From Ciconia boyciana (lineage: Eukaryota): a stretch of 64,000 nucleotides of DNA. Below are positions 10,856 to 56,340 of the stretch, in pieces (the first letter of the stretch is position 1; each line of letters opens with the position of its first letter). The notes beneath the pieces were generated by a model. That model made no database searches. It had not been told where the DNA came from and saw nothing but the letters and a program-made list of their open reading frames with translations. The position numbers and the translations under genes were made by a program. The stretch spans positions 319,423 through 383,422 of the forward strand of contig NC_132969.1 of assembly GCF_034638445.1 (NCBI RefSeq). The letters run 5' to 3'.

Positions 10856-10887
<32 letters not shown>

Positions 10888-10975: not shown

Positions 10976-10984
10976 GTGAGTTGA

Positions 10985-17897: not shown

Positions 17898-17899
17898 GT

Positions 17900-19628: not shown

Positions 19629-19639
19629 GTGGGGACCCC

Positions 19640-20760: not shown

Positions 20761-20785
20761 CCCCCCGCCCCGCGCCGTGGGGCAG

Positions 20786-20989: not shown

Positions 20990-20999
20990 GTGAGGGGGG

Positions 21000-23460: not shown

Positions 23461-23559
23461 GAATCTGTGGGGCAGACCCTATGGGACACCCCACACCCCC
23501 CGGGGTGCAGAGGGGGCAGCGGCGGGGGGGGGGCACGGACCCGCTCCCCTCCCCCCTCA

Positions 23560-24900: not shown

Positions 24901-24938
24901 CCCCTCCCCCCTCCCGGAGGGGAAAAGCAACCCCGCAG

Positions 24939-25178
24939 GAACTCACCAAAAAACAGACGCAGAAGGATCTGGAATGCGCCACGCTGCTGCGGCACCACGA
25001 GGCCACGCGCCAGCTGGAGACGCGGCACCTGGCCGCCCTGCACCGCACCCGCGCCGACCTCGCCCGCTGCCAGCACCAGAGCGAGCTGGCCCACCAGCGC
25101 GACTACAACCGCCGCCGCCACCAGGACCTGCGCCAAAAGCACGCCGCCCAGCTCCGCCAGCAGCCCAAACGCCTCCGA
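24939..25178 (+). CDS. TAOK2: TAOK2 coding exon 15 (beta/short-isoform splice form)
   Basis: Acceptor aaccccgcAG, GT donor (gtaggt) at 25179. Translation ELTKKQTQKDLECATLLRHHEATRQLETRHLAALHRTRADLARCQHQSELAHQRDYNRRRHQDLRQKHAAQLRQQPKRLR. Compare human DLNKKQTQKDLECALLLRQHEATRELELRQ...RQKHAAQVRQQPKSLK. The exon is 240 nt, phase 0. Confidence 0.85.
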
Positions 25179-26018: not shown

Positions 26019-26099
26019 CGGCGGCCCACGGGGCCGCGGCCCCGGCTGCACCCAGGCACTACGGACCCCCTCCTCCCCGGCAGGGTCTCGGGGACCCCC

Positions 26100-27360: not shown

Positions 27361-27419
27361 GGGCTCCTGTTGGCTGTTTTGTGTTAAATACATTATTTAA
27401 ACCCAAGGGCACCCTTGGC

Positions 27420-30400: not shown

Positions 30401-31300
30401 GGGTTGGTGGGACGCAACGTGGGGCTCACCCATGGGTGCTGAGATCACCCATGGGTGCTGGGACATGATTTGGGGTCACCCATGGGTTATGAGATCACCC
30501 ATGGGTGCTGAGATCACCCAGGGTTGGTGGGACACGATTTGGGGTCACCCATGGGTCGTGAGATCACCCATGGGTCATGAGATCACCCATGGGTGCTGAG
30601 ATCACCCAGGGTTGGTGGGACGCAACGTGGGGCTCATCCATGGGTGCTGAGATCACCCAGGGTTGGTGGGACACGATTTGGGGTCACCCATGGGTGCTGA
30701 GATCACCCAGGGTTGGTGGGACACGATTTGGGGCTCATCTGTGGGTTGTGAGATCACCCATGGGTGCTGAGATCACCCAGGGTTGGTGGGACATGATTCG
30801 GGGTCACCCATGGGTGCTGAGATCAGCCAGAGTTGGTGGGACGCAACGTGGGGCTCATCCATGGGTGCTGAGATCACCCATGGGTGGTGGGACACGATTT
30901 GGGGCTCATCTATAGGTCATGAGATCACCCATGGGTGCTGAGATCACCCATGGGTGGTGGGACATGATTTGGGGTCACCCATGGGTGCTGAGATCGCCTG
31001 TGGGTCGTGAGATCACCCATGGGTGCTGAGATCACCCAGGGTTGGTGGGACACGATTTGGGGCTCATCTATAGGTCATGAGATCACCCATGGGTGCTGAG
31101 ATCACCCAGGGTTGGTGGGACACGATTCGGGGCTCACCCATGGGTCTTGAGATCACCCATGGGTGCTGAGATCACCCATGGGTGGTGGGGCATGATTTGG
31201 GGTCACCCATGGGTGCTGAGATCACCTGTGGGTCGTGAGATCACCCATGGGTGCTGAGATCACCCAAGGTTGATGGGACACGATTCGGGGTCACCCACGG
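27420..31300. repeat. Minisatellite (gagatcacccatgggtgctga / ggttggtgggacacgatttggggtcaccca) with units of about 18-30 bp and higher-order structure, TAOK2 intron 15
   Basis: Conspicuous direct repetition over 3.9 kb. The first about 1 kb (27420-28450) is a diverged variant (cacccatgggtgctgggg). Confidence 0.85.
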
Positions 31301-31428
31301 GTGCCGAGATCACCCACGGGTGGTGGGACACGACGGGTGGCCACCGCAGTACCCCCCACCCCCCACCCCCACCCCCCCGCCCCTCCCCCAGGCGTGGCTA
31401 ACGCCCCTCCCCCTCTCGGCGGGCGCAG

Positions 31429-31641
31429 CGCGAGGAGCTGCAGCTGAAGAAGCAGTTCCAGGCCAGCTGCAAGGCGCGGGCGCGGCACTACAAGGCCCTG
31501 CGGAGCCACCTCCTGGAGGGCGCGGCCAAGGGGCAGCGCAAGGCGCTGCTGCAGCGCCTGAAGGCCGAGCGGACGCGGGAGTTGGCCGTCCTGGCCGAGC
31601 AGTACGAGCACAGCGTCGGGGAGATGCTCTCCAGCCAGGCC
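31429..31641 (+). CDS. TAOK2: TAOK2 coding exon 16
   Basis: Acceptor ggcgcAG, donor GTAGGT. Translation [71 protein letters not shown]. Compare human [30 protein letters not shown]...AILAEQYDQSISEMLSSQA. The exon is 213 nt. Confidence 0.9.
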
Positions 31642-31644
31642 GTA

Positions 31645-33300
31645 GGTGGGGAGGGGGGGAGGGGGGTGGGGTGGTGGGGGTGGAGGAGGAGGTGGAGGTG
31701 ATGGTGGTGGTGGTGGTGGTGGGGCTGGTGGTGGAGGTGGTGGAGGTGGTGATGGTGGGGGTGGAGGAGGTGGAGGTGATGGAGGTGTTGGTGGGGCTGG
31801 TGGTGGTGATGGTGGAGGTGGTGGGGCTGGTGGTGGTGGAGGTGAGGATGGTGGTGGAGGTGGTGGAGGTGGTGATGGTGGGGGTGGAGGAGGTGGAGGT
31901 GATGGAGGTGGAGGTGATGGTGGTGGTGGTGGGGCTGGTGGTGGTGATGGTGGAGGTGGTGATGGTGGGGGTGGAGGAGGTGGTGGGGCTGGTGGTGGAG
32001 GTGGAGGTGATGGTGGTGGAGGTGGTGGGGCTGGTGGTGGTGGAGGTGAGGGTGGTGGTGGAGGAGGTGGAGGTGATGGTGGTGGAGGTGGTGGGGCTGG
32101 TGGAGGTGATGGTGGGGCTGGTGGGGGTGGTGGTGATGGTGGTGGTGGAGGAGGTGGAGGTGAGGGTGGGGGTGGTGATGGTGGAGGTGGAGGTGATGGT
32201 GGGGCTGGTGGAGGTGGTGGTGGAGGTGGTGATGGTGGGGGTGGAAGAGGTGGAGGTGATGGTGGTGATGGTGGAGGTGGTGGGGCTGGTGGGTGGAGGT
32301 GGTGATGGTGGGGTTGGTGGCAATGGTGGTGGTGGAGGAGGTGAGGGTGGTGGTGGTGGGGGTGGAGGAGGTGGAGGTGATGGAGGTGGAGGTGGTGGGG
32401 CTGGTGGTGGTGGTGGTGGCGGAGGTGGTGGAGGTGGTGATGGAGGTGGAGGTGATGGTGGGGCTGGTGGAGGTGGTGGTGATGGTGGGGGTGGTGGTGA
32501 TGGTGATGGAGATGGTGGTGGTGATGGTGGAGGTGGTGATGGAGGTGATTGTGGTGGGGGGGAGGGGGAGGTGGGTGCAGATGATGGTGGAGGTGATGGA
32601 GGTGATGGTGGTGATGGTGATGGAGGTGGTGGGGGTGGTGATGGTGGAGGTGAGGGTGGTGGAGATGATGGAGGTGGAGGTGATGGTGGGGGTGGTGGCG
32701 ATGGTGGGGGTGGAGGTGGTGGAGGTGGTGATGATGGTGGAGGTGGTGATGATGGTGGAGGTGGTGGCAGAGATGATGGAGATGGGGGTGGTGGTGGAGG
32801 TGGTGATGATGATGGAGATCGTGATGATGATGGAGGTGGTGGAGGTGGGGGTGGAGGTGGTGATGGAGGTCGTGGTGGTGGGGAGGTCTGGAGGGTGGTG
32901 GAGGTGGTGATGATCGAGGTGGTGGTGAGGGTGGAGGTGAGGGGGGTGGAGGTGATGATGATGGAGGTGGTGGTGGTGGAGGAGGAGGAGGTGGTGGTGG
33001 GGAGGTGAGGTGGTGATGGTGTTGGGGGAGGTGGTGGTGGAGAAGGAGGTGGGGGTGATGGTGGGGGAGGTGATGGGGAGGAGGTGGTGATGGTGGGGTG
33101 GTGGTGATGATGGTGATGGAGATGGTGGTGGTGATGGTGGAGGTGGTGATGGAGGTGATTGTGGTGGGGGTGAGGGGAGGTGGTGGTGAAGGTGGTGGGG
33201 AGGTGATTGTGCTGGGGGTGGTGATGGACATGGTGGGGGTGATGGGGGGGGGTGGTGTGGAGATGATGGAGGAGGTGGTGGTGGAGGTGACGGAGGTGAT
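31645..33300. repeat. Hexamer microsatellite (GGTGGA/GGTGAT/GGTGGG)n
   Basis: Near-pure GGTGRW iterations over 1.6 kb. This explains the poly-Gly (+) and poly-Pro/His (-) ORFs. The plus strand is G-rich. Confidence 0.9.
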
Positions 33301-34740
33301 TGTGGTGGTGGGGAGGAGAAGGCAACAGGGGGATTTGATGGGGAGGGGAGGACCTGATGGGGACGTGAGAACCCAGCGGGGACCCAATGGGGACCCGAGG
33401 ACCCAAGAGGGACTCGATGGGGACACAAGGACCCAACAGGGCCATGGGGACCCATCGGGGACTTGATGGGGACGTTGAGGACCCAACGAGGACCAGTAGA
33501 TGCGTGGGGAACCCAACGGGGACCCAACAGGGCCATGGGGACCCAACGGGGACTTGATGGGGACGTGAGGACCCAACGGGGACCAGTAGATGCGTGGAGG
33601 AACCCAATGGGACCCAACGGGCCCCACCAGGGACACGAGGACCCAACGGGGACTTGATGGGGACGTGGGGACCCGATGGGGACCAGCAGATGCGTGGGGG
33701 ACCCAACGGGACCCAACAGGGACATGACGGGGACGTGAGGACCCAACGGGGACCAGCAGGGACTTGAAGACCCACCAGGGACTTGATGGGGACATCACGA
33801 GGACATGAGGACCCAACAGGGCCATGGGGACCCATCGGGGACTTGATGGGGACGTTGAGGACCCAACGGGGACCAGTAGATGCGTGGGGAACCCAACGGG
33901 GACCCAACAGGGCCATGGGGACCCAACGGGGACTTGATGGGGACGTGAGGACCTAATGGGGACCCACGGATGCGTAGGGGACGCAATGGGGACCCGACGG
34001 GGACTTGATGGGGACATCACGAGGACCCAACAGGGACCCACAGATGTGTGGGGAACCCAATGGGACCCAACGGGGACGTGAGGACCCCACGGGACCCAAC
34101 GGGGACTTGATGGGGACATCACAGGGATGTGAGGACCCAACAGGGCCATGGGGACCCATCGGGGACTTGATGGGGACGTTGAGGACCCAACGGGGACCAG
34201 TAGATGTTTGGGGAACTCAACGGGACCCAACGGGGACTTGATGGGACACGAGGACCTAACGGGGACCAACGGGGACATGGGGACCTGATGGGGACGTGAG
34301 GACCCTACGGGGACCCGATGGGGACCTGGGGGGGACATGGGGACCCAATGGGGACCCACAGATGTGTGGGGAACCCAATGGGACCCGACGGGGACATGAC
34401 GGGGACGTGAGGACCCCACAGGACCCAACGGGGACTTGATGGGGACATCACGAGGACATGAGGACCCAACAGGGACCCACAGATGTGTGGGGAACCCAAT
34501 GGGACCCGACAGGGACATGACGGGGACAGGGGGACCCAATGGTGCCCAACAGATGCGTAGGGACCCAACGGGGACCCAATGGGGACCCAACGGGGACATG
34601 GGGACCCAATGGGGATCAATGGGCACCCAAGAGGGTCCCAAGAGGGAGGTGGGGACCCAATGGGGACCCAGAGACTCACGGGGGACCCAATGGAGACCCA
34701 GTGGGGACCTAAGAGGAACCTACAGCCCCACAGGGACCCA
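33300..34740. repeat. About 60-bp minisatellite (gacccaacggggacttgatggggacgtgaggacccaacggggaccagtagatgcgtgggga)
   Basis: Direct repetition. Confidence 0.8.
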
Positions 34741-35040
34741 CCAGGGACCTGGGGACCTCCTGGGGACCCCCGGGAGCCCCTCAAGTGCCTGGGAAGCCAC
34801 CAGAGATGGGGATGGGACCTCCGGGAGCCCCTCGGCTGCCTGGGAAGCCACCAGAGATGGGGATGGGACCCCCAGGAGCCCCTCAAGTGCCTGGGAAGCC
34901 ACCAGAGATGGGGATGGGACCCCCAGGAGCCCCTCAAGTGCCTGGGAAGCCACCAGAGATGGGGATGGGACCCCCAGGAGCCCCTCAAGTGCCTGGGAAG
35001 CCACCAGAGATGGGGATGGGACCTCCAGGAGCCCCTCAAG
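34740..35040. repeat. Perfect 60-bp tandem repeat x5 (cccctcaagtgcctgggaagccaccagagatggggatgggacccccaggagc)
   Basis: Five near-identical copies about 100 nt upstream of TAOK2 exon 17. Confidence 0.9.
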
Positions 35041-35164
35041 TGCCCAAGAACCTACCAGGGCCCATCCAGGGCCACGTCCCCTCCTCAAGAGAAGCAGAGT
35101 TATGGGGTGGTGAGTTTTGGGGGACCCCCACCTCATCCCCACCCCACCCCTCTTCATCCCCCAG

Positions 35165-35347
35165 CTCCGATTGGACGAGACGCAAGAGGCGGAGTACCAG
35201 GTGCTGCGCTTGCAGCTGCAGCAGGAGCTGGAGCTCCTCAACGCCTACCAGAGCAAGATCAAGATGCACACGGAGGCCCAGCAGGAACGGGAGCTCAAGG
35301 ACCTGGAGCAACGCGTCTCCATCCGCCGCGCCCTCCTCGAGCAGCGG
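35165..35347 (+). CDS. TAOK2: TAOK2 coding exon 17
   Basis: Acceptor tcatcccccAG, donor GTACGG. Translation [61 protein letters not shown]. The exon is 183 nt. Confidence 0.9.
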
Positions 35348-35349
35348 GT

Positions 35350-38300
35350 ACGGGGGCGGGGGGGGGGACACGGACACATTTCGGGGGGTCTCGGGCCTCC
35401 CGGCGCTGAGGTGGGGACAGGTTTGGGGTTCCCCAAGGGAGATTTGGGGGGGTTTGGAGCTCCCCAAGGGGGATTTTGATGGTTTCAGGGCTGCCCCGAG
35501 GGGGATCATGGAGGTTTCGGGGCTCCCCAAGGGGATTGTGGTGGTTTCGGGGTTCCCCTCAGGGATTGTGGGGTTTGGGGCTCTCCCAAGGGGATTGTGG
35601 GGGTTTGGGAGTCCCCAGGGGGAGATTTTGTGGTTTTGGGGATCCCCCATTGGTTTTGTAGTAGTTTCGGGGCTCCCCAAGGGGGATTATGGAGGTTTCG
35701 GGGCTCCCCAAGGCAGATTATGGGGGTTTTGGGGTTCCCCTCAGGGACTGTGGTGGTTTTGGGGCTCCCCAAGGGGATTGTGGGGGTTTCAGGGCTCCCC
35801 CGAGGGGGATTATGGAGGTTTCGGGGCTCCGCAAGGGGGATTGTGGTGGTTTTGGGGATCCCCCATGGGGTTTGTGGTAGTTTCAGGGCTCCCCCACAGG
35901 GATTTTGGGGCACCCCAAGGGGGATTGTGGTGGTTTTGGGGTTCCCCAAGGGGATTGTGGGGATTTGGGGGTCCCCAAGGGAAATTTGGTGGTTTTGGGG
36001 GTCCTCCATGGGGATCGTGGTAGTTTCAGGGCCCCCCCACAGGGATTTTGGGGCTCCCCAAGGGAGATTTGGCTGGGTTTGGAGCTCCCCAAGGGGGATT
36101 TTGATGGTTTCAGGGCTGCCCCGAGGGGGATTATGGAGGTTTCGGGGCTCCCCAAGGAGGTTTCGGGGTTCCCCTCAGGGACTGTGGGGGTTTGGGGCTC
36201 TCCCAGGGGATTGTGGGGGTTTGGGAGTCCCCAGGGGGAGATTTTGTGGTTTTGGGGATCCCCCATGGGTTTTGTAGTAGTTTCGGGGCTCCCCAAGGGG
36301 GATTATGGAGGTTTCGGGGCTCCCCAAGGCAGATTATGGGGGTTTTGGGGTTCCCCTCAGGGACTGTGGTGGTTTTGGGGCTCCCCAAGGGGATTGTGGG
36401 GGTTTCAGGGCTCCCCCAAGGGGGATTATGGAGGTTTCGGGGCTCCGCAAGGGGGATTGTGGTGGTTTTGGGGATCCCCCATGGGGTTTGTGGTAGTTTC
36501 AGGGCTCCCCCGTGGGGATTTTGGGGCTCCCCAAGGCAGATTATGGAGGTTTTGGGGTTCCCCTCAGGGACTGTGGTGGTTTTGGGGCTCCCCAAGGGGA
36601 TTGTGGGGGTTTCAGGGCTCCCCCGAGGGGGATTATGGAGGTTTTGGGGCTCCGCAAGGGGGATTGTGGTGGTTTTGGGGATCCCCCATGGGGTTTGTGG
36701 TAGTTTCAGGGCTCCCCCACAGGGATTTTGGGGCTCCCCAAGGGGGATTATGGAGGTTTCAGGGCTCCCCAAGGGAGATTATGGAGGTTTTGGGGTTCCC
36801 CTCAGGGACTGTGGTGGTTTTGGGGCTCCCCCAAGGGGGATTGTGGGGATTTGGGGGTTCCCCTCAGGGATTGTGGGGGTTTGGGAGTCCCCAAGGAGAG
36901 ATTTTGGTGGTTTTGGGGATCCCCCATGGGGTTTGTGGTAGTTTCAGGGCTTCCCCACAGGGATTTCGGGGCTCCCCAAGGGGGATTGTGGTGGTTTGGG
37001 GGTCCCCAAGGTGGGATTTTGGTGGTTTCAGGGCTCCTCAGAGGGATTTGGGAGTTTCAGGGTTCCCCAAAGGGGCTCGTGGGGGTTTTGAGGCTCCCCA
37101 GAGGGCTTTTGGGGTTCTTCAAGGAGGATTTTGGGGGTTTCAGGGCTCCCCAAAGGCGTTTGGGGGTTTCAGGCCTCCCCAGAGGGATTTTGGGGTTCTT
37201 CAGAAGGATTTTGGGGGTTTCAGGGCTCCCCAAAGGGGCTTGTGGAGGTTTCAGGGTTCCCCAAAGGCATTTGGGAGTTTTGGGGCTCCCCAGAGGGATT
37301 TTGGGGTTCTTCAAGCAGGATTTGGTGGTTTCAGGGCTCCCCAAAGGCATTTGGGAGTTTCAGGGCTCCCCCTGGGGGTTTTGGGGATCCCCAAAAGGAT
37401 TTGGGAGTTTTGGGGTTCCCCAAAGTGGCTCATGGGGTTTCGGGGCTCCCCAGAGGGCTTTTGGGGTTCTTCAGAAGGATTTTGGGGGTTTCAGGCCTCC
37501 CCAGAGGGATTTTGGGGTTCTTCAAGCAGGATTTTGGGGGTTTTGGGGCTCCCTGAAGTGGCTCGTGGGGTTTTCAGGGCTCCCCAAAGGGATTTGGGAG
37601 TTTCAGGGCTCCCCAGGGGGATTTTGGGGTTCTTCACAAGGATTTTGGGGGTTTCAGGGCTCCCCACGGATATTTTGGGGTTCTTCAAGCAGGATTTGGG
37701 GGTTTCGGGGCTCCCCAAAGGGATTTGGGAGTTTCGGGGCTCCCCAGAAGGATTTTGGGGTTCTTCAGGAGGATTTTGGGAGTTTTGGGGCTCCCCAGAG
37801 GGATTTTGGGGTTCTTCAGGAGGATTTTGGGAGTTTCGGGGCTCCCCAGAGGGATTTTGGGGTTCTTCAGAAGGATTTTGGGAGTTTCAGGGCTCCCCAG
37901 GGGTATTTTGGGGTTCTTCAAGCAGCATTTGGGGGTTTCGGGGCTCCCCAAAGGGATTTGGGAGTTTCGGGGCTCCCCAGAGGGATTTTGGGGTTCTTCA
38001 GAAGGATTTTGGGAGTTTCAGGGCTCCCCAGAGGGATTTTGGGGCTCTTCAGAAGGATTTTGGGGGTTTCAGGGCTCCCCAGGGGTATTTTGGGGTTCTT
38101 CAAGTAGGATTTGGGGGTTTGGGGGCTCCCCAAAGGCATTTGGGAGTTGCGGGGCTCCCCAGAGGGATTTCGGGGTTCTTCACAAGGATTTTGGGAGTTT
38201 CAGGGCTCCCCAGAGGGATTTTGGGGCTCTTCAGAAGGATTTTGGGGGTTTCAGGGCTCCCCAGGGGTATTTTGGGGTTCTTCAAGCAGCATTTGGGGGT

Positions 38301-42060: not shown

Positions 42061-42084
42061 CCCGGGGCTTTGGGTGACCCCCAG

Positions 42085-42219
42085 GCTACGCCCGCCTGGC
42101 GCTGGCCGCTGTCTCCTTCTACCTGATGCCGCGGCAGCCGGGGCCGGCGGCCGCCTGCTACGCCCTGAGCGGGCTGATGGACGCCGTCGACGGGCACGTG
42201 GCCCGGCTGCTGGGCCAGG
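42085..42219 (+). CDS. CDIPT: CDIPT coding exon 2
   Basis: Acceptor gacccccAG, donor GTGGGC. Translation (G)YARLALAAVSFYLMPRQPGPAAACYALSGLMDAVDGHVARLLGQ(G); compare human YARIVFAIISFYFMP...LSGLLDAFDGHAARALNQG. Confidence 0.9.
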
Positions 42220-42224
42220 GTGGG

Positions 42225-43050
42225 CGGGGCCGGGGGCGGGGCCTCGGCAGGGCGGGGCTTGGCAGGGTGGGGCCCCGGGGAGGGGGGTGGGGGTATAGGG
42301 GTGGGGAAGGGGAGCAGGGGCTTGGAGAGGGGTGGGGCTTGGGGAGGGGTGGGGCTTAGGAAGGAGGCGGGGCCCAGGTGCATATGGGGGTGGGGTTAGG
42401 GGAGGGCGTTGCAGCTCTGGGGGCGGGGCTTGGCAGGGTGGGGCCCGGGGGAGGGGGGTGGGGGTATAGGGGTGGGGAAGGGGAGGGGTGGGGCTTGGGA
42501 GGGGTGGGGCTTAGGAAGGAGGCGGGGCCCAGGTGCATATGGGGGTGGGGATAGGGGAGGTGTGGTGTGAGTCTGGGGGCAGGGCTTGGGGAGGGGCGGA
42601 GCTGAAGGGCGGAGCTTGGGGAGGGGCAGGGCCCGGGGCATGTGGGGACGGGGGGTGTGGTGGTGCAGCTTGAAGGGCGGGGCTTGTGAGGGTGGGGCTT
42701 GGCAGGGGCGGGGCTTGGGGAGGGGTGGGGCTTGGGGAGGGGCGGGGTCCGGGGCGATGATGTATGGGGGAGGGAAGGGGATAGGCGATGTCTGGGGGCG
42801 GGGCTTGGGGCGTGGTCACAGAGAGGGGGCGGAGCTCCAACTTCCTCCCCATGGAAGAGGCGGGGCCCACCCCCAAGTCCCCACCCGCAGTGGGCGTGGC
42901 TGACCCTTAGCCCCGCCCCTCGGCCGGGCGCCGCGCTGGACATTGCCCCATGGCGGGAGCGGGGGGGGGGGGTGTCCTGCCCCATAGCGGCTCCCTGCCC
43001 CGCCCCCGGTGGTCCCGCCCCCCCGTGGGCGTGGCTGAGCCTTGTCCCCG
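42225..43050. repeat. G-rich repeat (ggggcttggggaggggtgggg; about 155-bp higher-order unit), CDIPT intron 2
   Basis: aggaggcggggcccaggtgcatatgggggtgggg recurs at about 42361 and 42519. Confidence 0.75.
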
Positions 43051-43057
43051 CCCCCAG

Positions 43058-43211
43058 GCTCGCGGCTGGGCGCCATGCTGGACATGCTGACGGACCGGCT
43101 CTCCACCATGTGCCTCCTGCTCAACCTGGCCCTGCTCTACCCCGCCGCCGCCCCCCTCTTCCAGCTCAGCATGGCCCTCGACGTGGCCAGCCATTGGCTG
43201 CACATGCACTG
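43058..43211 (+). CDS. CDIPT: CDIPT coding exon 3 (CDP-alcohol phosphatidyltransferase motif region)
   Basis: Acceptor cgcccccAG, donor GTGGGC. Translation (G)SRLGAMLDMLTDRLSTMCLLLNLALLYPAAAPLFQLSMALDVASHWLHMH; compare human TRFGAMLDMLTDRCSTMCLLVNLALLYPGATLFFQISMSLDVASHWLHLH. Confidence 0.9.
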
Positions 43212-43214
43212 GTG

Positions 43215-44170
43215 GGCGGGGCTTGCGGGGGCGGGGCGTGCTGGGGGGCGGGGCCTCGGCGGGGTAAGGGGGGGCTGGGATCAGGGGCTGCCCTGGGGGG
43301 GGTGTGTGTGTCTGGGCGAGGGGCGGGGCTTGATGGGGAGGGGCGGGGCTTGGGGAGGGGGCGGGGCTTGGGGACCCTGGGATATGGGGGGCTGCACTGG
43401 AAGGAAAGGGAGGGGGCGTGGTCTGGGGAGGGGGCGGGGTTTGGGAGGGGCGGGGCTTGGGGACCCTGGGATATGGGGGGCTGCACTGAAAGGAAAGGGG
43501 GGCGTGGTCTGGGGAGGGGCGGGGTTTGGGGAGGGGGCGGGGCTTGGGGACCCTGGGATATGGGGGGCTGCACTGAAAGGAAAGGGTGGGGGCGTGGTCT
43601 GGGTGAGGGGGCGGGGCTTGATGGGGAGGGGCGGGGCTTGGGGACCCTGGGATATGGGGGGCTGCACTGAAAGGAAGGGGGCGTGGTCTGGGCGAGGGGG
43701 CGGGGCTTGTAGAGGGGGCGGGGCTTGGGGACCCTGGGATATGGAGTGGTCTGGGCGAGGGGCGTGGTCTGGTCTCAGGGTGTGGTCTGGGCGAGGGGCG
43801 GGGCCTGGGGTAAAGGCGGGGCTTGGGGATGGGGTGGGGCTTGGGAAGGGGAGGAGCCTGGGGTAGGGTGTGCAGTGGGGGTGGAGCTTATCCTCGGAGG
43901 CGTGGCCTTATCCTCGGGGTGGGGCCTTATCCTGGGGGCGGAGTGTTATACTTGGGGCGGGGTCTTATCCTGGGGGCGGGACCTTACCCTTGGAGGTGTG
44001 GCCTTATCCTCGGGGGCAGGGCCTTATCCTCGGGGGCGGGGCCAGCTGTCTATACCTTGGGGGGGGTGATGTGTGTTTCTCCCCTCCTCCCCCGGGTGGG
44101 GCGTGGCCGTGGGTGGGGCCGGTGGCGGGGGTGTGGCCGCGTGGGCGTGTCCTCGCCTGACCCCGCCCCC
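43215..44170. repeat. About 105-bp repeat x5 (ggggaccctgggatatggggggctgcactgaaaggaaaggg) followed by a 16-bp repeat x8 (gccttatcctcggggg), CDIPT intron 3
   Basis: Direct repetition. Confidence 0.8.
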
Positions 44171-44178
44171 TCCGGCAG

Positions 44179-44260
44179 CACCACCCTGCAGGGAGGGGAG
44201 AGCCACAAGGCGGTGGGGGGGGAGGTGCACCCCCTCCTGCGGCTGTACTACGGCTCCAGG
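44179..44260 (+). CDS. CDIPT: CDIPT coding exon 4
   Basis: Acceptor ctccggcAG, donor GTGAGT. Translation (C)TTLQGGESHKAVGGEVHPLLRLYYGSR; compare human SSVVRGSESHKMIDLSGNPVLRIYYTSR. Confidence 0.85.
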
Positions 44261-44337
44261 GTGAGTGGGGAGGGGAGGGGGTGGGGGTGGGGGAGGGGGT
44301 GACCTCCCGCCCCCCCTTGACCCGCCCTCCCCCCCAG

Positions 44338-44419
44338 CCCCTCCTGTTCCTGCTCTGCGCCGGCAACGAGGGGTTTTACTGCTGCCTCTACCTGCTGCAC
44401 TTCGGGGAGGGGCCGCCCG
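44338..44419 (+). CDS. CDIPT: CDIPT coding exon 5
   Basis: Acceptor ctcccccccAG, donor GTGAGG. Translation PLLFLLCAGNEGFYCCLYLLHFGEGPP; compare human PALFTLCAGNELFYCLLYLFHFSEGPL. Confidence 0.9.
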
Positions 44420-45170
44420 GTGAGGGACTGGGGGGACTGGGACGGACTGGGAGGGGACTGGAGGGACTGGGAGGGGACTGAGGGGACTGGGGGGACTGGG
44501 GGGACTGGGAGGGAACTGGGGGTACTGGGGGGCTGGGAGGGAACTGGGGGGCTGGGAGGGGAACTGGGGGGACTGGGAGGGGACTGGGAGGGGAACTGGG
44601 GGGACTGGGAGGGGAACTGGGGGGACTGGGAGGGGCTGGGAGGGGCGGGGAGGGGAACTGGGGGACTGGGAGGGAACTGGGGAGGACTAGGGAGGGACTG
44701 GAGGGGAACTGGGGGGGACTGGGAGGGACTGGGAGGGACTGGGGGGACTGGGAGGGACTGGGGAGGGACTAGGGGTCACTGGGAGGGGACTGGGAGGGAG
44801 TGGGAGGAACTGGGAGGGATTTGGGGGGAACTGGGGGGCACCGGGTGGATCCGGGGTTGATTGCGATGGGGTGGGGGGGAACTGGGAGGGGACTGGGGGT
44901 CACTGGGGGGAAACTGGGAGGGACTGGGGGAACTGGGAGGGGAACTGGGGGGACTGGGAGGGGAACTGGGGGGGACTGGGAGGGGCTGGGAGGGGACTAG
45001 GGGTCACTGGGAGGGGACTGGGAGGGACTGGCGGGAACTGGGAGGGATTTGGGGGGAACTGGGGGCACCGGGTGGATCCGGGGTCGATTGCGACGGGCGG
45101 GGGGGAACTGGGGGCACTGGGGGGCACCGGTTGGAACTGGGAGAGACTGGGAGATAGCGGGGCGGGGGAG
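44420..45170. repeat. About 21-bp repeat (gggactgggaggggaactgggg), CDIPT intron 5
   Basis: Direct repetition filling the whole intron. Confidence 0.85.
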
Positions 45171-45200
45171 GGAGGTGCTGAGCCCTCCCTCCCCCCCCAG

Positions 45201-45352
45201 TGCTGCCGGGGGGGCCGGGGCTGTTCCGGGCCGGGCTCTGGCTGGGGACCCCCCTGGCCGCGCTCAAGGGGGGGCTGAACCTGCTGCAGCTGGGGGGGGC
45301 CGCCCGCCGCCTGGCCGCCATCGACGCCGCCCAGCGCCCCAAAAGCAGCTGA
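45201..45352 (+). CDS. CDIPT: CDIPT coding exon 6 (terminal, with stop)
   Basis: Acceptor cccccccAG. Translation (V)LPGGPGLFRAGLWLGTPLAALKGGLNLLQLGGAARRLAAIDAAQRPKSS followed by TGA at 45350-45352. The six exons sum to 651 nt, giving 216 aa (human CDIPT is 213 aa). Confidence 0.9.
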
Positions 45353-47200: not shown

Positions 47201-49090
47201 GACGGCGGGGGAGGGGGTCCTCACTGAAAAACTGGGGGGGAGGGAAGGTCAGGTTGGGGGAGGGGCAGGGATTTGGGGGTCCCCGATGTTTGGGGGGCCC
47301 CACGGGGGTGGGGGGGGTACCTGGGGGGAGGGGTTTTGGGGTCCCATAGGGGATTTGGGGGCCCCAGGGATTGGGGGGGTCGGGGGGCAGGGGGGTTGGG
47401 GGGCCCCAGGGGGGTTGGGGTCCCATGGGGGGTTGGGGGGGGCAGGGATTGGGGAGGGGCAGGGGCTTTTAGGGGCCCAGGGGGTTTGGGGGTCCCCGAT
47501 GTTGTGGGGGGTGGGGGTGGTTTGGGGGGTGGGGGATGGGGGCTTTGGGGGGGTGGGGGAGGTTTGGGGGGTTGTTTGCGGGGGTGTTTTGGGGGCTGTT
47601 TTGGGGGGCGTTTGGGGGGTGGGGGTGTTTGGGGGTGGGGGTGTTTTGGGGGGCTGTTTTGGGGGTTCAGGGGGTTTGGGGGTGGGGGTGTTTTTGGGGG
47701 CTGTTTTGGGGGTTCGGGGGTTTGGGGGGTGGGGGTGTTTTGGGGGTGGGGGTGTTTTGGGGGGCTGTTTTGGGGGGTCTGGGGTTTTGGGGGTTTTGGG
47801 GGTGGGGGCTGTTTTGGGGGCTGTTTTGGGGGTCCTGGGGGGTTGGGGGGTGTTTTGGGGGTTGGGGGGATGTTTGCGGGGCGTTTGGGGGTGTGGGGGT
47901 GTTTTTGGGGGGCTGTTTTGGGGGTTCGGGGTTTGGGGGGTGGGGGTGTTTTGGGGGTGGGGGTGTTTTTGGGGGGCTCTTTTGGGGGGGTCTGGGGTTT
48001 GGGGGTTCTGGGGGGTTGGGGGGTGTTTTTGGGGGCTGTTTTGGGGGGTTCTGGGGTTTGGGGGGTTTGGGGGGGTGTTTGGGGGTGGGGGGTGTTTTTA
48101 GGGGGCTGGTTTGGGGGTTCTGGGGTTTTGGGGGGTGGGGGTGTTTTGGGGAGCTGGTTTGGGGGTTCAGGGGGTTGGGGGGTGGGGGCTGTTTGGGGGA
48201 GCTATTTTGGGGGTTCTGGGGGGTTGGGGAGTGTTTTGGGGGTTCGGGGGTTTTGGGGGGTTTGCGGGGGTGGGGGTGTTTTGGGGGTGGGGGGTGTTTT
48301 GGGGGCTGGTTTGGGGTTCTGGGGGAGTTAGGGGGTGGTTGGGGGTGTTTTTGGGGGGCTGTTTTGGGGGGTCTGGGGTTTTGGGGGTTTTGGGGGGTGG
48401 TGGCTGTTTTGGGGGGCTGTTTTGGGGGTCCTGGGGGTTGGGGGGTGTTTTGGGGGGTTGGGGGATGTTTGCGGGGGCGTTTGGGGGGTGGGGGTGTTTT
48501 TGGGGGGCTGTTTTGGGGGTTCGCGGGGTTGGGGGTTTGGGGGGTGGGGGTGTTTTGGGGGTGGGGGTGTTGGGGGGCTGTTTTGGGGGTTCTGGGGTTT
48601 GGGGGGTGGGGGTGTTTTGGGGGCTGGTTTGGGGGTTCTGGGGGGTTGGGGGTTTGGGGGGTGGGGTGTTTTGGGGGGCTATTTTGGGGGTTCTGGGGTT
48701 TGGGGGTGTTTTGGGGGTGGGGGTGTTTTTGGGGGGCTGTTTTGGGGAGTGTTTTTGGGGGTTTGGGGTTTGGGGGTGGAGGTGTTTGGGGTGGGGGGGT
48801 GTTTTGGGGCTGGTTTGGGGTTCTGGGGTTTTGGGGGTGGGGTGTTTTGGGGGGCTGGTTTGGGGGTTCGGGGGGTTGGGGGTTTGGGGGTGGGGGTGTT
48901 TTGGGGGCTATTTTGGGGGTTCTGGGGGTTGGGGGGTGTTTGGGGGGCTGTTTTTGGGGGTTCAGGGGGTTTGGGGGTTGGGGGGTGGGGGTGTTTGGGG
49001 GTGGGGGTGTTTTGGGGGCTGGTTTGGGGGTTGGGGGGTGTTTGGGGGCTGTTTTGGGGGTTCTGGGGGTGGGGGTGGGGGTGGTTTCGG
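47200..49090. repeat. G/T-rich minisatellite (gggggtgttttgggggctgttttgggggttctgggg)
   Basis: 1.9 kb of direct repetition abutting the PRRT2 donor at 49108. It is C/A-rich on the PRRT2 sense strand. Confidence 0.85.
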
Positions 49091-49108: not shown

Positions 49109-49241
49109 CGCCGAAGTTGATGGCGCAGGAGGCGGCGAGGAGCAGGGCCCCCCCCAGCAGGGCCACCCCCGCCAGCAGCTTGGCCACGCGGCCCAGGCGC
49201 CGGGCGCCCTCCACGTCCCCCTGCTGCCGGCTGTGCCGCGG
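49109..49241 (-). CDS. PRRT2: PRRT2 coding exon (second dispanin/CD225 transmembrane helix)
   Basis: Minus-strand acceptor tccggcAG and donor GTGAGT (plus-strand gcactcac at 49101-49108). Translation [44 protein letters not shown](G). Compare human PRRT2 [44 protein letters not shown]. The exon ends in phase 1, so a short terminal coding exon (human VYK-stop) should lie downstream but could not be placed inside the C/A-rich repeats. Confidence 0.75.
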
Positions 49242-49244
49242 CTG

Positions 49245-50300
49245 CCGGACCCACGGCTGACCCACGGCTGCCCCACGGCTGCCCCCCGGCGCCCCACGGC
49301 CGCCCCACGGCCGCCCACACCCAAGCCGTGGCCCAGCCCCGGTGGGTCTCCCAGCCGGCCCGGGCTGACCCACGGCTCGCCCGCGGGCGCTGCCCCATAG
49401 CTGCCCCACGGATACCCCGCGCTGACCCGTAGCTGCCCCACGGACACCCCATGCTGACCCATAGCTGACCCACGGACACCCCACGGCTGCCCCACGGACA
49501 CCACGTGCTGACCCATGGCTGCCCCACGGACACCCCATGCTGACCCATAGCTGCCCCACGGACACCCCACGGCTGCCCCACGGACACCACGTGCTGACCC
49601 ATGGCTGCCCCACGGACACCCCATGCTGACCCATAGCTGACCCACGGACACCCCACGGCTGCCCCACGGACACTCCACGCTGCCCCATGGCTGCCCCACA
49701 GCCACCTTGCACTGACCCACAGCCAACCTACACTGACCCATAGCTGCCCCAGACACCCCACGCTGACCCACGGACATCCCATGCTGCCGTATAGCTGCCC
49801 CACGGCTGCCTCACAGCAGCTGCCCCACAGCTGCCCCACAGCCACCCTGCACTGACCCACAGCCAACCTACACTGACCCACAGCTGCCCCACGGCCATCC
49901 CACACTGACCCACGGCAGCTGCCCCACGGACACCCCATGCTGACCCATAGCTGCCCCATGGACACCCCACGCTGACCCACAGCTGCCCCACAGACACCCC
50001 ATGCTGACCCATAGCTGCCCCACAGACATCCCACACTGACCCGTAGCTGCCCCACAGCTGCCCTATGGCTAACCTATGCTGACCCACAGCTGCCCACGGC
50101 CATCCCACACTGACCCACGGCAGCTGCCCCACGGACACCCCACGCTGACCCATAGCTACCCCACGGCTGCCCCACAGCCATCCCATGCTCACCCACAGCT
50201 GCCGACCCACGGCAGCTGCCCCACGGCAACCAACCCACAGCTGCCCCACTGCTCACCCACGGTTGCCCCACAGCCACCCCACACTGACCCATAGCTGCCC
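49245..50300. repeat. About 32-bp minisatellite (ctgccccacggacaccccatgctgacccatag), PRRT2 intron
   Basis: Direct repetition starting directly at the PRRT2 exon acceptor. Confidence 0.85.
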
Positions 50301-52800
50301 CACGGCCACCCCATGGCCAACCCACGGCTGACCCACAGCCACAGCGTGCCCCACACTGCACCCCATTGCGGCATGCGCTGTGCCCCATTTTACCCCCCGC
50401 TGTGCCCCATTGCACCCCACACCCTACCCATTATCCCACCCTCTGCCCCATAGCCTGCCCCACAGCCCACCCCATAGCCCCATAGCACCCCACGCCACAC
50501 CCCATTGCACCCCAGCACCCGCCCCATTGCACCCCGCACCTTGCCCCACAGCCCCCCACCCTCTGCCCCATTGTGTCATGCACTGCGCCCCATTGCACCC
50601 CCATTACCCCCACACTCTGCCCCACAGCCCGCCCCACAGCCTGCCCCAGAGCCCCATAGCACCACACCCCATTGCAGCCCAGCGCCCGCCCACAGCCCCC
50701 CACCCTCTGCCTGATAGCATCCCCTGCCCCATAGCTCCGCCCCATAGCCTGCCCCATAGCACCACACGCCATTGCTCCCCACCCTCTACCCCATAGCCCC
50801 CCCATTACCCCCCTTCTGCCCCACAGCCTGCTGCACATCCCGCCCCACATCCTGCCCCATGGCAACCCTCTCCCTGACCCATTACACCCCCACCCTGTGC
50901 TCCACTTCCCCATTCCCCCCACCCTCTGCCCCATAGCCCGCCGCCCCATTCCCCCTTCCGCCCCACATCCCACCCCACACCCTGCCCCACATCCCGCCCC
51001 ATAGCACCCCTCTCCCTACCCCATTCCCCCACCCTGCACCCCATTCCCCCATTCCCCTCATATCCCCCCCATTCGCCCCCTTCCGCCCACATCCCCCACG
51101 TCCCACCCCACACCCCGTCCCACGCCCACCCCACATCCCACCCCACATCCCGCCCCATAGCACCCCCTCCCTACCCCATTCCCCGCCCACCCTGCACCCC
51201 ATTCCTCCCCATATCCCCCCCATTCCCCCCTTCCACCCCACATCCCCCCCACGTCCCACCCCACACCCTGCCCCACAGCACCCCCTCCCTACCCCATTCC
51301 CCCCCACCCTGCACCCCATTCCCCCCCATATCCCCCCATTCCCCTCTTCCGCCCCACATCCCCCCCACATCCCACCCCACACCCCCCATGCCCCACCCCA
51401 CATCCCACCCCACATCCCGCCCCATAGCACCCTCCCTACCCCATTCCCCCCCCACCCTGCACCCCTTTCCCCCCATATCCCCCCCCATTCCCCCCTTCCA
51501 CCCCACATCCCCCCACGTCCCACCCCACACCCTGCCCCACACCCCACCCCACATCCCACCCCACATCCCGCCCCATAGCACCTCCCTCCCTACCCCATTC
51601 CCCACCCACCCTGCACCCCATTCCCCCCTTCCCCCCATATCCCCCCATTCCCCCTTCCGCCCCACATCCCCCCACATCCCGCCCCACACCCTGCCCCACA
51701 TCCCGCCCCATAGCACCCCCTCCCTACCCCATTCTCTGCCCACCCTGCACCCCATTCCCCCTTCCCCCCCATATCCCCCCCATTCCCCCCCACATCCCCC
51801 CCCACGTCCCGCCCCACACCCTGCCCCACACCCTGCCCCACATCCCGCCCCATAGCACCCCCTCCCTACCCCATTCCCCGCCCACCCTGCACCCCATTCC
51901 CCCCTTCCCCCCATATCCCCCCCATTCCCCCCACATCCCCCCCCCACGTCCCGCCCCACACCCTGCCCCACACCCTGCCCCACATCCCGCCCCATAGCAC
52001 CCCCCTCCCTACCCCATTCCCCGCCCACCCTGCACCCCATTCCCCCCTTCCCCCCATATCCCCCCCATTCCCCCCCACATCCCCCCCACGTCCTGCCCCA
52101 CACCCTGCCCCACACCCTGCCCCACATCCCGCCCCATAGCACCCCCTCCCTACCCCATTCCCCGCCCACCCTGCACCCCATTCCCCCTTCCCCCCATATC
52201 CCCCCCATCTCCCCTCACATCCCCCCCACGTCCCGCCCCACACCCTGCCCCACATCCCGCCCCATAGCACCCCCTCTCCCTACCCCATTCCCCCCACCCT
52301 GCACCCCATTCCCTTCCTCCCCCCATATCCCCTCCTTCCGCCCCACATCCCTCCCCACGTCCCGCCCCACACCCTGCCCCACACCCTGCCCCACATCCCG
52401 CCCCATAGCACCCCTCCCTACCCCATTCCCGCCCACCCTGCACCCCATTCCCCCTTCCCCCATATCCCCCATTCCCCTCACATCCCCCCCCACGTCCCGC
52501 CCCACACCCTGCCCCACATCCCGCCCCATAGCACCCCTCCCTACCCCATTCCCCCCACCCTGCACCCCATTCCCCCCTTCCCCTCATATCCCCTTCCGCC
52601 CCCACATCCCTCCCCACGTCCCGCCCCACACCCTGCCCCACACCCTGCCCCACATCCCGCCCCATAGCACCCCCCCCTCCCTACCCCATTCCCCGCCCAC
52701 CCTGCACCTCATTCCCCTTCCCCTCATATCCCCCATTCCCCTCACATCCCCCCTCACGTCCCGCCCCACACCCTGCTCCCACACCCTGCCCCACATCCTC
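50300..52800. repeat. C-rich higher-order repeat of about 140 bp (ccccacatcccgccccatagcaccccctccctaccccattccccgcccaccctgcaccccattcccc...), PRRT2 intron
   Basis: catagcaccc recurs at about 140-bp intervals from 51400 to 52700. The array ends at the PRRT2 GTGAGG donor (52802). Confidence 0.85.
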
Positions 52801-52802
52801 AC

Positions 52803-53566
52803 CATCAGGGCGTAGACGAAGGCCACGATGTTGATGGGCCAGACGGGGCAGAAGCAGGCCAGCGCCGCCAGCAGGACGTAGCTCGGTGGCTTCGCCCCCC
52901 CTGGGGACCCCCCCGGGGGTGACCCCTCCCCTCAGTGCCCCCCCCGCCCCCCCATTTTCTTGGGGACCCCCCTCCACTGGCACCGTCACCGGGGGGGGCT
53001 GGGGGGCGGTTGGGGGCTGGGGGGGTGGGGTGGGGGCTGGGGGTCCTGGGGGCTGCTGGGGGCTGGGGGGGGCTTGGGGGCACTTGGGGGCTGGGGGGCT
53101 TGGGGGGCTGGGGGTCCTGGGGAGGTTGGGGGCTGGGGGGTGGGGTGGGGGGGGGGGTCCTGGGGGCGGGTGGGGCTGGGGGGGTTGGGGGGTCTTGGGG
53201 GCAGAGGGGGGTCTTTAGGGTCGGGGAGGGGCTGGGGCTTCCTGGGGCAGTTGGGGGCTGGGGGGTTGGGGTCCTGGGGGTGGTTGGGGGCTGGGGGGCG
53301 GTGGGGGATCTCTGGGGCCCTGGGGTCCTGGGGGCTGCTGGGGGCTGGGGGGCTGGGGGTCTTGGGGGGCAGAGGGGGTCCCCAAGATTCTGGGGCTCCT
53401 GGGGGGCTGGGGGCTGGGGGGCTGGGGGAGGGTCCTCGGGGTGGCGGGGGTGGGGGTGGGGCTGGGGGCTCGGGGGGTTGGGGGTGGGGAGGGGCTTTTG
53501 GGGTGCCGGGGGTCCCGGGGGAGTCGCCGGGGGTTCGGTCTCGGCCGTCCTGGGGGTCTCCGCCAT
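52803..53566 (-). CDS. PRRT2: PRRT2 large 5-prime coding exon (Pro-rich N-terminus and first transmembrane helix), with frame disruptions
   Basis: Minus-strand Kozak ccaccATGg with ATG at 53566-53564. It is preceded by acceptor cccctcccccAG (exon starts at about 53593). The exon ends with ...[32 protein letters not shown] followed by a GTGAGG donor (plus-strand cctcac at 52797-52802). Compare human ...[30 protein letters not shown]. The ATG frame reads [36 protein letters not shown].... The transmembrane helix is in a different frame. The exon is 764 nt, not a multiple of 3, so at least two frame changes occur in G/C homopolymer tracts around 52880-52990. Confidence 0.6.
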
Positions 53567-54000: not shown

Positions 54001-56340
54001 GGGAGGTGGGGGAGGGGTTAATGGGGGAGGGGAAGGGGGAGGGGAGGACTTGTCCACAGCCCCTCCCCACCCCCGTGCAGGGCCCCTCGCCCGCCCGGAT
54101 CGGGCCCGGCTCCAACCCTGACCTCATCCCCGGGCAAGTGGCCAGGGCCAATGGTTGCCCGGAGCTCTGGGTGGCCCCCCCCGGGGTTTGGGTGCCCCCC
54201 CCCCCAAAAGGGGCAGGGTGGGGGAGGGGCCCCCCAACCCCCAACCGTCTGGACCCCGTGACCCCAACCCCCCGGGGATGCGGCTTCACCGTCGACTCGT
54301 GGAGACGTCGGCCAATCGGGGGTGGGGGAGGGGTTAATGGGGTGGGGAGGGGCAGGGCGGGGAGGGGCAGGGTGGGGAGGGGCCACCCAACCACCTGGAC
54401 CCCACGACCCCCAGCCCCACGGAGACGTGGTGACCCCCAACCCCCGGGAGATGTGGCTTCACCCTTGGTTCATGGAGACGTCGGCCAATCGGGGCGGGGG
54501 GAGGGGTTAATGGGGCTGGGGGAGGGGTTAATGGGGTGGGGAGGGGCAGGGTGGGGAGGGGCCTCCCAACCCCCCTTCAGATGGACCCTGTGACCCCAAA
54601 CCCCTGGAGATGTGGTGACCCCCAACCCCCCGGAGATGCGGCTTCACCCTTGGTTCATGGAGACGTCGGCCAATCAGGAGGTGGGGGGAGGGGTTAATGG
54701 GGGCTGGGGGAGGGGTTAATGGGGGAGGGGCCCCCAACCCCCATTCAGATGGACCCCGTGACCCCCAGCCCCACGGAGATGTGGTGACCCCCAACCCCAT
54801 GGAGACGTGGTGACCCCCAACCCCCGGAGATGTGGCTTCACCCTTGGTTCATGGAGACGTCGGCCAATTGGGGGTTGGGGAGGGGTTAATTGGGGCTGGG
54901 GAGGAGTTAATGGGGGTGGGGGAGGGGTTAATGGGGGTGGGGAGGGGCCCCCAACCCCCATTCAGATGGACCCTGTGACCCCCAACCCCCCGGAGATGCG
55001 GCTTCACCCTTGGTTCATGGAGACGTCGGCCAATTGGGGGGCTGGGGGAGGGGTTAATTGGGGCTGGGGAGGGGTTAATGGGGGGTGGGGAGGGGCAGGG
55101 TGGGGAGGGGCTCCCAACCCCCATTCAGATGGACCCCGTGACCCCCAGCCCCATGGAGACGTGGTGACCCCCAACCCCCCGGAGATGCGGCTTCACCCTT
55201 GGTTCATGGAGACGTTGGCCAATCAGGAGGTGGGAGGAGCTGTTAATGGGGGCTGCGGGAGGGGTTAATGGGGGAGGGGCCTCCCAACCACCTGGACCCC
55301 ACAACCCCCAGCCCCATGGAGACGTGACAACCCCGACCCCTGGAGACGTGGTGACCCCCAACCCCCCGGAGATGTGGCTTCACCCTTGGTTCATGGAGAC
55401 GTCGGCCAATCAGGGGGCTGGGGGAGGGGTTAATTTGGGCTGGGGAGGGGTTAATGGGGGTGGGGGAGGGGCAGGGTGGGGAGGGGCTCCACAACCCCCA
55501 TTCAGATGGACCCTGTGACCCCAAACCCTCTGGAGATGCGGCTTCACCCTTGGTTCATGGAGATGTTGGCCAATCAGGGGGCTGGGGGAGGGGTTAAGGG
55601 GGTGGGGAGGGGCAGGGTGGGGGAGGGGCCTCCCAACCCCCATTCAGATGGACCCCGTGACCCCCAGCCCCACGGAGACGTGGTGACCCCCAGCCCCACG
55701 GAGACGTGGTGACCCCCAACCCCCCGGAGATGCGTCTTCACCCTTGGTTCATGCAGACGTCGGCCAATCAGGGGGCTGGGGGAGGGGTTAATTGGGGCTG
55801 GGGGAGGGGTTAATGGGGGAGGGGCCTCCCAACCACCTAGACCCCACAACCCCAGCCCCACGGAGACGTGGTGACCCCCAACCCCATGGAGATGTGGTGA
55901 CCCCCAACCCCCGGAGATGCGTCTTCACCCTTGGTTCATGCAGACGTCGGCCAATCAGGGGCTGGGGGAGGGGGTTAATTGGGGCTGGGGAGGGGTTAAT
56001 GGGGGAGGGGCCTCCCAACCACCTAGACCCCACAACCCCCAGCCCCACGGAGACGTGGTGACCCCCAGCCCCATGGAGACGTGGTGACCCCCAACCCCCC
56101 GGAGATGTGGCTTCACCCTTGGTTCATGGAGACGTCGGCCAATCAGGGGCTGGGGAGGGGTTAATTGGGGGTGGGGAGGGGTTAATGGGGGAGGGGCCCC
56201 CCAACCCCCATTCAGATGGACCCCGTGACCCCCAGCCCCACGGAGACGTGGTGACCCCCAACCCCATGGAGATGTGGTGACCCCCAACCCCCCGGAGATG
56301 CGTCTTCACCCTTGGTTCATGCAGACATCGGCCAATCAAA
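54000..56340. repeat. About 185-bp tandem repeat x about 12 carrying GGCCAATCAG (CCAAT box) and GGTTAATGGGG motifs
   Basis: The unit ...ggagatgcggcttcacccttggttcatggagacgtcggccaatcagg...ggggttaatgggg...cccattcagatggaccccgtgacccccagccccacggagacgtggtgacccccaacccc... recurs at about 54270, 54455, 54640, 54830, 55010, 55190, 55375, 55545, 55735, 55915, 56105 and 56295. It lies between the PRRT2 5-prime end and the FReD 3-prime end. Confidence 0.85.

Follow-up and report, generated by a model that had tools for sequence, protein, structure and literature searches.

False indels cluster in the GC-rich first coding exons of birds, where they lead to false introns in the gene models (Kim et al. 2022, PMC9516821). 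Frameshifts result from homopolymer indels left standing in consensus sequences built from Oxford Nanopore Technologies (ONT) reads (Sereika et al. 2022, PMC9262707), and deletions are a more frequent ONT error where G-quadruplex motifs occur (Weissensteiner et al. 2023, PMC10519405). The published genome of the stork Ciconia boyciana was assembled from PromethION ONT reads with NextDenovo, polished with ONT reads in NextPolish, scaffolded with 3D-DNA, and then corrected with short reads. Here, we describe the first coding exon of PRRT2 in a 64,000-nt stretch of C. boyciana DNA (assembly GCF_034638445.1, contig NC_132969.1, positions 319,423 to 383,422), hereafter referred to as the window, whose own numbering is used throughout. 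In this exon, the start codon, a conserved internal motif and the first membrane helix lie in three different reading frames, which we attribute, with a probability of about 0.65, to two or more homopolymer miscalls in the assembled sequence. The stork PRRT2 case thus brings together a known gene and an already known class of artefact.

Three reading frames within PRRT2's first coding exon

Judged by homology and gene order, the exon at 53566..52803 belongs to PRRT2, a neuronal membrane protein of the CD225 family. The first-pass annotation of this DNA had named the same gene, and the identification was confirmed on four counts: the CD225 domain, the names of the best matches, shared synteny (CDIPT, TAOK2) and the exact reproduction of a stork protein. 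In particular, the helix together with exon 3 matched Pfam PF04505 (CD225) with E=1e-19 and 70.8 bits, against a cut-off of 27.1, and the CFCP.WP.NIVAF helix and the CD225 loop were both found in the stork protein, the alignment showing invariant columns. The closest database relatives were named PRRT2 (stork, 100%; cormorant, 82%; also lizard, turtle, and coelacanth); TRARG1/TUSC5 and TMEM233 were considered as paralogues, and the TRARG1 matches scored below the PRRT2 ones. Splicing 53566-53528, 52925-52803, 49241-49109 and 47231-47221 yielded XP_072705172.1 of C. boyciana exactly. The bird PRRT2 orthologues found in the protein searches were those of the stork, the cormorant and, in part, Accipiter; the cormorant locus (L001) is collinear with the stork window.

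We refer to the three frames as A, the frame of the start codon, B (+1) and C (+2). Frame A runs from the ATG through 253 sense codons to a TGA at 52807-52805. On its own, this openness is weak, as 21% of composition-matched shuffles were stop-free over 254 codons; thus, the long ATG frame was not taken as evidence, and the assignment of frames rests on homology. The MAETPRTAE N-terminus in frame A is encoded by DNA nearly identical to that of the cormorant (L001 6172), in the same Kozak context, and it resembles the reptile PRRT2 start MSDDAE(T/K)KE.PP. At the other end of the exon, frame C is the frame that splices in phase 0 to exon 3, the exon ending ...GCC CTG ATG at 52803 with GTGAGG next; the earlier claim that the helix occupies a third frame and joins the following exon in phase 0 was therefore correct, with exon 3 as that exon.

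Frame B carries the VTV..E..GPQENG motif, which is conserved in turtles, lizards, lungfish, and bichir. In full-length sauropsid PRRT2 (a squamate sequence from Logan, P0048, and that of the turtle Emydura, P0049) and in lungfish and bichir, an acidic/Pro-rich N-terminus is followed by (T)VTVTVE..(G)PQENG(D/E)A..L.GG; after QENG come a mid-region, SKSASLxDL...NGGPR...GSQVHLAG..GSPRPSLSRQPS, then EKPRDY and then the helix. The stork frame-B motif stands directly after the Pro-rich region, matching the order in the reptile proteins (P0048, P0049). A hidden Markov model (HMM) of VTV..QENG, built from six non-bird sequences, was scanned on all six frames of the window and of the cormorant locus (159,420 residues). 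Its sole positive match was the frame-B segment at 53007..52939, and the runner-up was the homologous cormorant site. On an isolated 206-nt segment, frame B scored 17.3 bits and the other two frames scored below zero; in the shuffle control, none of 4000 shuffles (x3 frames) beat frame B, the highest reaching 10.0 bits. The first-pass annotation had compared the frame-B text with human GPGVEGGEGTQ, which is probably not its counterpart; the counterpart is the reptile VTVTVE..PQENG motif.

The differences between the two birds in the VTV codons are consistent with translation in frame B. There are four, of which two are third-position and two conservative when read in frame B; read in frame A, all four are non-synonymous. 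Because dS between stork and cormorant is 0.32, an untranslated 40-nt motif would be expected to decay. From these comparisons, we conclude that frame B is currently, or was until very recently, translated in the stork lineage. Two stretches of frame A, "GGSPR" as the conserved GSPRPSLSR motif and "GGPR" as NGGPR, were tried as conserved text and rejected; the mid-region HMM was empty in all frames. Since each of the three frames carries homologous text, a path with two switches, from A to B and from B to C, appears to be the best reading of the exon. The homology of each frame also bore out the earlier description of three partial translations in three frames of a 764-nt (3n+2) exon.

The mid-region, about 70 residues long (SKSASLxDL...NGGPR...GSQVHLAG..GSPRPSLSRQPS), is conserved in bichir, lungfish, frogs, lizards, and turtles. 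An HMM of this region gave no significant match in the six frames of the window or of the cormorant locus, and in both birds the stretch between the QENG motif and the helix is G-rich and just ~25 codons long (window 52990..52895; L001 6880..6945). Stork and cormorant thus seem to have lost an otherwise conserved mid-region while their Pro-rich part expanded. This absence looks specific to these two birds and is no argument against orthology.

The C-terminal part of PRRT2 is under purifying selection: dN/dS (the ratio of non-synonymous to synonymous substitution rates) relative to the cormorant is 0.26 across the 78 codons at the C-terminal end, and the first membrane helix has a value of 0.12. 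The GC content at third codon positions in this part reaches 0.95, and the GT-AG sites of both intron 2 and intron 3 are intact. The start codon, the stop codon, the true splice sites and both membrane-helix exons are intact, the frame offsets being the sole defects; several lesion types and a dN/dS near 1, as expected of a unitary pseudogene, were not found in stork PRRT2. Given the dN/dS of 0.26, the intact splice sites and the lack of any stop in the appropriate frames, a long-standing pseudogene appears unlikely.

Position and cause of the frame changes

The size of each switch is one extra base or two missing ones, for a net change of +2 or -1 nt. A comparison of the partial translations with reptile PRRT2, suggested as a check in the first-pass annotation, matched frame B to VTV..PQENG; together with the CD225 match of frame C and the stop codons, it bounded the slip positions, without fixing them exactly (table 1). 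The exon is 64% C up to 52991, followed by a 95-nt G-rich linker (56% G) and then by ordinary helix coding sequence, and it holds 23 runs of at least six G or C, the longest being C11 (letter and number here denote a base and the length of its run). The A-to-B interval contains eleven C runs of at least six: C11 at 53157-53147, C8 at 53072-53065 and 52998-52991, C7 at 53184-53178 and 53025-53019, and six C6. The B-to-C interval contains, in order, G4, G4, C5, G7 (52914-52908), C4 and G7 (52901-52895), and it overlaps both motifs of G-quadruplex type; a further frame-C stop lies at 52988-52986. The permitted intervals hold only C/G runs and short spacers, and conserved coding text resumes undamaged downstream. 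The C-rich composition of the Pro-rich region also implies dense G-quadruplex potential on the opposite strand.

The cormorant alignment points to a narrower site for the second switch. The cormorant helix frame and stork frame B stay in register through GGA GGG G.C.CC CCC GGG GGG GTC, past which the stork has one extra base (TCCCCA-G7 vs. TCCGT-G7 in the cormorant), so that the switch would lie at 52906..52895. Both switches had previously been placed around 52895-52990 and in runs of seven or more. This holds for the second, which is confined to an interval with two G7 runs, whereas the first may lie anywhere in 53214..52990, at any of the eleven C runs of at least six, among which the C8 near 52990 is a possible site. 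Two further approaches did not place the first switch. The frame with fewest A/T at third codon positions was clean in the helix (0-1 of 19), but in the Pro-rich part the best frame drifted in both birds, probably because of the 7-8 nt repeat units; and the offsets of exact internal repeats of at least 15 nt, taken modulo 3, were split 10/6/10 and carried no frame information.

Micro-introns had been left as a possibility at both switches. At the B-to-C switch they are excluded, since 37 nt cannot hold a spliceosomal intron. At the A-to-B switch, no intron with GT/GC...AG ends, a length of at least ~50 nt and a size of 3n+1 was found: the C-rich region has a single GT, and every AG downstream of it is at most 30 nt away.

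We propose that the exon of the living stork would be read in one frame through the start, the Pro-rich region, VTV..PQENG, a short G-rich linker and the first membrane helix. The assembled exon would depart from it by one length discrepancy in a C run within 53214..52990 and by another in the cluster of G runs and G-quadruplex motifs within 52931..52895, both being consensus errors of a nanopore-based assembly. Short-read correction may have failed at a locus of extreme GC content, dense homopolymers and G-quadruplex-prone sequence, after which the RefSeq pipeline would have bridged the start codon to the helix by a 602-nt GC-AG "intron". Three lines of evidence suggest this cause, namely the ONT-based assembly, the literature on errors at homopolymers, G-quadruplexes and GC-rich sequence, and a similar break in the cormorant. 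The 912,000-bp length of the contig with XP_072705172.1, a multiple of 1 kb, would likewise fit 3D-DNA scaffolding. The cormorant exon 3 reads CAGC-G7-ACG where the conserved frame requires G6; in cormorant intron 2 (L001 7396..8917), the exon-3 acceptor and the first ~45 nt of the exon are tandemly repeated ten times, nine copies with G6 and one with G5. The exon-3 G7 is probably a +1 homopolymer error in that assembly too, and we rejected the cormorant as a gold standard on account of this G7/G6 break. With regard to the earlier view that homopolymer length errors, not a pseudogene, underlie the offsets, the case against an old pseudogene was upheld, and we infer that errors, not mutations, produced the discrepancies and that these number exactly two.

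Several observations weigh against this explanation. Two +1 shifts need two over-calls or two 2-nt under-calls, whereas the typical ONT error is a single-base under-call. In the cormorant, the start-codon frame is the helix frame over 288 codons with no shift, and the VTV DNA is read in the other frame; this means either a pair of compensating errors in the cormorant, a genuine change of frame there, or a frame B that goes untranslated in these birds. The QEN codons are not conserved in the cormorant, which has RGP instead. Such errors are not universal either, as stork exon 3 has a G8 that keeps the correct frame. Finally, the window presumably derives from the published ONT assembly, and the choice between error and real variant draws on sequence and literature rather than on reads. 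The indel content of the minisatellite arrays, taken as a proxy for assembly error, was similar in stork and cormorant and hence uninformative.

Of the alternatives, a single miscall fares best, although we consider it unlikely. With one base missing in 52931..52895 (e.g., in a G7 or G4 run), the true exon would be 765 nt long and frame A would lead straight into frame C, the frame-B motif being an untranslated relic of an older, real frameshift common to the cormorant. Frame A is indeed open over the whole exon, one inserted base restores an open reading frame (ORF) of 255 codons, and the cormorant reads so in one 288-codon ORF, GDGVARGGSPRARGGG...GGAKPPSY. The stork is also 8 nt longer than the cormorant between GGTGACGGTG and GCGAAG, where one more base would make an in-frame 9 nt, and a one-base under-call at a G-quadruplex or homopolymer is the commonest ONT error. 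Nevertheless, a single miscall leaves unexplained why the frame-B motif is intact relative to reptile, lungfish, and bichir despite a dS of 0.32; the frame-A text at this place matches no conserved PRRT2 segment, and the four VTV-codon substitutions would all be non-synonymous. The agreement with the cormorant also counts for less than it seems, because that assembly is an unsafe standard with its exon-3 break and because an in-frame outcome occurs by chance one time in three in near stop-free sequence.

Real germline indels, whether from a recent inactivation of PRRT2 in the stork lineage or as loss-of-function slippage alleles on the assembled haplotype of an endangered, inbred bird, are quite unlikely in our view. 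Homopolymers slip in vivo, and among carriers of human PRRT2 mutations up to 80% have c.649dupC, which lies in a C9 run adjacent to G4 (PMC11250761). The stork exon offers 23 runs of at least six, C11 among them, and the paper on the stork assembly has a section on the mutational load of the species. However, no other lesion was seen: there is no damage to the start, the three true splice sites or the membrane-helix exons, the frame-B motif shows no decay, and dN/dS stands at 0.26. Two independent frameshifts with neither nonsense nor splice damage would be an unusual onset of decay. The prior for an ONT homopolymer error at such sites is, moreover, far above that for the fixed loss of a conserved synaptic gene.

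It is also improbable that the RefSeq structure is real, with an internal intron of about 600 nt (an exitron) spliced out and a functional short isoform of 101 residues. XP_072705172.1 does map exactly with a 602-nt (3n+2) GC-AG gap, and ACCCCCGG direct repeats flank the region 614 nt apart (3n+2). The model of the lizard Podarcis muralis (P0003; Ensembl/UniRef) passes from MSDDAEKNEAPPEQ straight to DLSRQAS..., some 20 residues short of the helix; by this likeness, a real internal splice may give a short isoform in sauropsids. The splice signals argue otherwise. The donor CCG|GCGACT is a weak one of a GC-AG pair, and G-rich sequence lacking a pyrimidine tract forms the acceptor GAGGGGAG|GGG; both true introns, by contrast, have a GTGAG donor and an acceptor rich in C/T. 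The cormorant RefSeq model has another start and other junctions, so the structure lacks conservation, and skipping leaves unexplained why the frame-B motif is conserved. Invented introns that bridge frameshifts are a known product of gene predictors (PMC9516821), and the 602-nt "intron" is probably a workaround of this kind in the gene model. The 8-nt copies of ACCCCCGG lie at 53534..53527 and 52920..52913; a deletion or template switch between them would join the start-codon and helix frames.

We regard as similarly improbable a "frame-robust" exon, its C- and G-rich low-complexity part near stop-free in all three frames, in which real frameshifts were tolerated and later compensated and the stork sequence is correct as assembled. 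If this were true, stork and cormorant would translate the same ancestral DNA in different frames (the cormorant having GDGVARGGSPR at the stork motif), and the stork exon would be either a very young loss-of-function allele or one rescued by an internal splice. Recoding, with a correct genomic sequence and a change of frame made at the G/C runs by the ribosome or by RNA polymerase, is scarcely credible: nothing but the coincidence of the shifts with homopolymers speaks for it, one exon would need two +1 events, neither a slippery heptamer nor a stimulator structure was seen (none having been looked for), and apart from antizyme, +1 recoding is hardly known in vertebrates, while transcriptional slippage needs long A or T runs.

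Gene models and surroundings of PRRT2

The stork RefSeq PRRT2 model has 101 residues and omits about 200 codons of the exon. The two birds' RefSeq models of PRRT2 are mutually inconsistent: the conserved start is retained in the stork model, and another ATG (L001 6001) is used in that of the cormorant. In the latter (L001 6001..9714), most of the Pro-rich region is left out and the exon-3 break is bypassed. About 200 residues are thus probably missing from the stork protein in RefSeq, and the model of the cormorant is distorted too; comparative work and selection analyses based on such models would be misled, as would any study in which bird PRRT2 is scored as truncated or lost. More generally, the locus suggests that GC-extreme, minisatellite-rich regions of bird microchromosomes still hold frame-breaking homopolymer errors in long-read assemblies.

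CDIPT and TAOK2 adjoin PRRT2. TAOK2 exons, encoding the kinase domain and coiled-coil parts, lie at 2783..35476 on the plus strand, and CDIPT exons at 42084..45343, also on the plus strand. The order of the three genes matches the human 16p11.2 neighbourhood. The first-pass annotation had spoken of two exons of the window with the same problem; a coarse tblastn search with human queries revealed no obvious within-exon frame break in CDIPT or TAOK2. Within PRRT2 (table 1), exon 3 is flanked by a CGGCAG acceptor and a GTGAGT donor. The non-exonic sequence of the window is almost all minisatellite, with 180 Tandem Repeats Finder arrays scoring at least 200 (e.g., 12082..17443, 50769..52798 and 54258..56338). 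One array, within a TAOK2 intron, consists of 86 copies of a 62-bp unit with 51% GC; the repeats in PRRT2 intron 2 are G-rich, with units of 142/284 bp.

Table 1. Coordinates of PRRT2 features in the 64,000-nt window of C. boyciana
Feature	Coordinates	Strand	Description
PRRT2 first coding exon	53566..52803	minus	ATG to phase-0 donor GTGAGG; 764 nt (3n+2)
Start codon and 13-residue N-terminus, frame A	53528..53566	minus	ATG at 53566-53564, context ccaccATGg
Pro-rich low-complexity region	52990..53527	minus	64% C; 7-28 nt repeat units; frame A open throughout
A-to-B switch interval	53214..52990	minus	Bounded by frame-B stop TAA (53217-53215) and VTV start
Frame-B segment with VTVTVE..PQENG motif	53007..52939	minus	HMM match; sauropsid/sarcopterygian PRRT2 motif
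B-to-C switch interval	52931..52895	minus	37 nt; bounded by frame-C stop TGA (52934-52932) and conserved AKPPSY at 52895
Canonical G-quadruplex motif	52953..52923	minus, coding strand	G7 C G8 CACTGA G4 A G4
Second motif of G-quadruplex type	52914..52895	minus, coding strand	
Frame C, first CD225 membrane helix	52895..52803	minus	Pfam CD225 jointly with exon 3
RefSeq-implied "intron"	53527..52926	minus	602 nt (3n+2); donor CCG|GCGACT, acceptor GAGGGGAG|GGG
Intron 2	49242..52802	minus	3561 nt; GTGAGG...CGGCAG; full of G-rich minisatellites
PRRT2 exon 3	49241..49109	minus	133 nt; phase-0 start; ends INFG + 1 nt; intact, in-frame G8 included
Last coding exon	47231..47221	minus	Completes Val, then Phe-Gln-stop

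Comparison with known systems

Compared with known PRRT2 proteins (XP_072705172.1 and cormorant XP_064331505.1 of Phalacrocorax carbo), the stork gene shares the split of CD225 in phase 0 after ...A(F/V)xYA(L/V)M, the 133-nt exon followed by a last exon of three codons, the Pro-rich N-terminus, the VTV..PQENG motif and the CDIPT/TAOK2 neighbours. It differs in that the Pro-rich part is much expanded and built of short C-rich repeats, and in that the assembled exon is out of frame.

The human c.649dupC hotspot (PMC11250761) involves the same gene, the same Pro-rich exon and the same type of event, a C-homopolymer frameshift next to G runs. The human change is a proven disease-causing germline mutation, whereas an artefact is the better-supported reading in the stork, and the runs of the two species do not occupy homologous positions. 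With the known systems of ONT error (PMC9262707, PMC10519405), the stork exon shares the confinement of its frame changes to C/G runs of 6-11 and G-quadruplex motifs; in contrast to those systems, its two +1 shifts do not belong to the commonest type of ONT error. As in the stork, the cases of Kim et al. (2022, PMC9516821) combine indels whose length is not 3n, in a first coding exon rich in GC, with a non-biological intron that keeps the frame. Those cases came from older Sanger/Illumina assemblies compared with Vertebrate Genomes Project assemblies of the same individual, whereas the stork assembly is a long-read one, and the false introns there were 1-2 nt long, against 602 nt in the stork.

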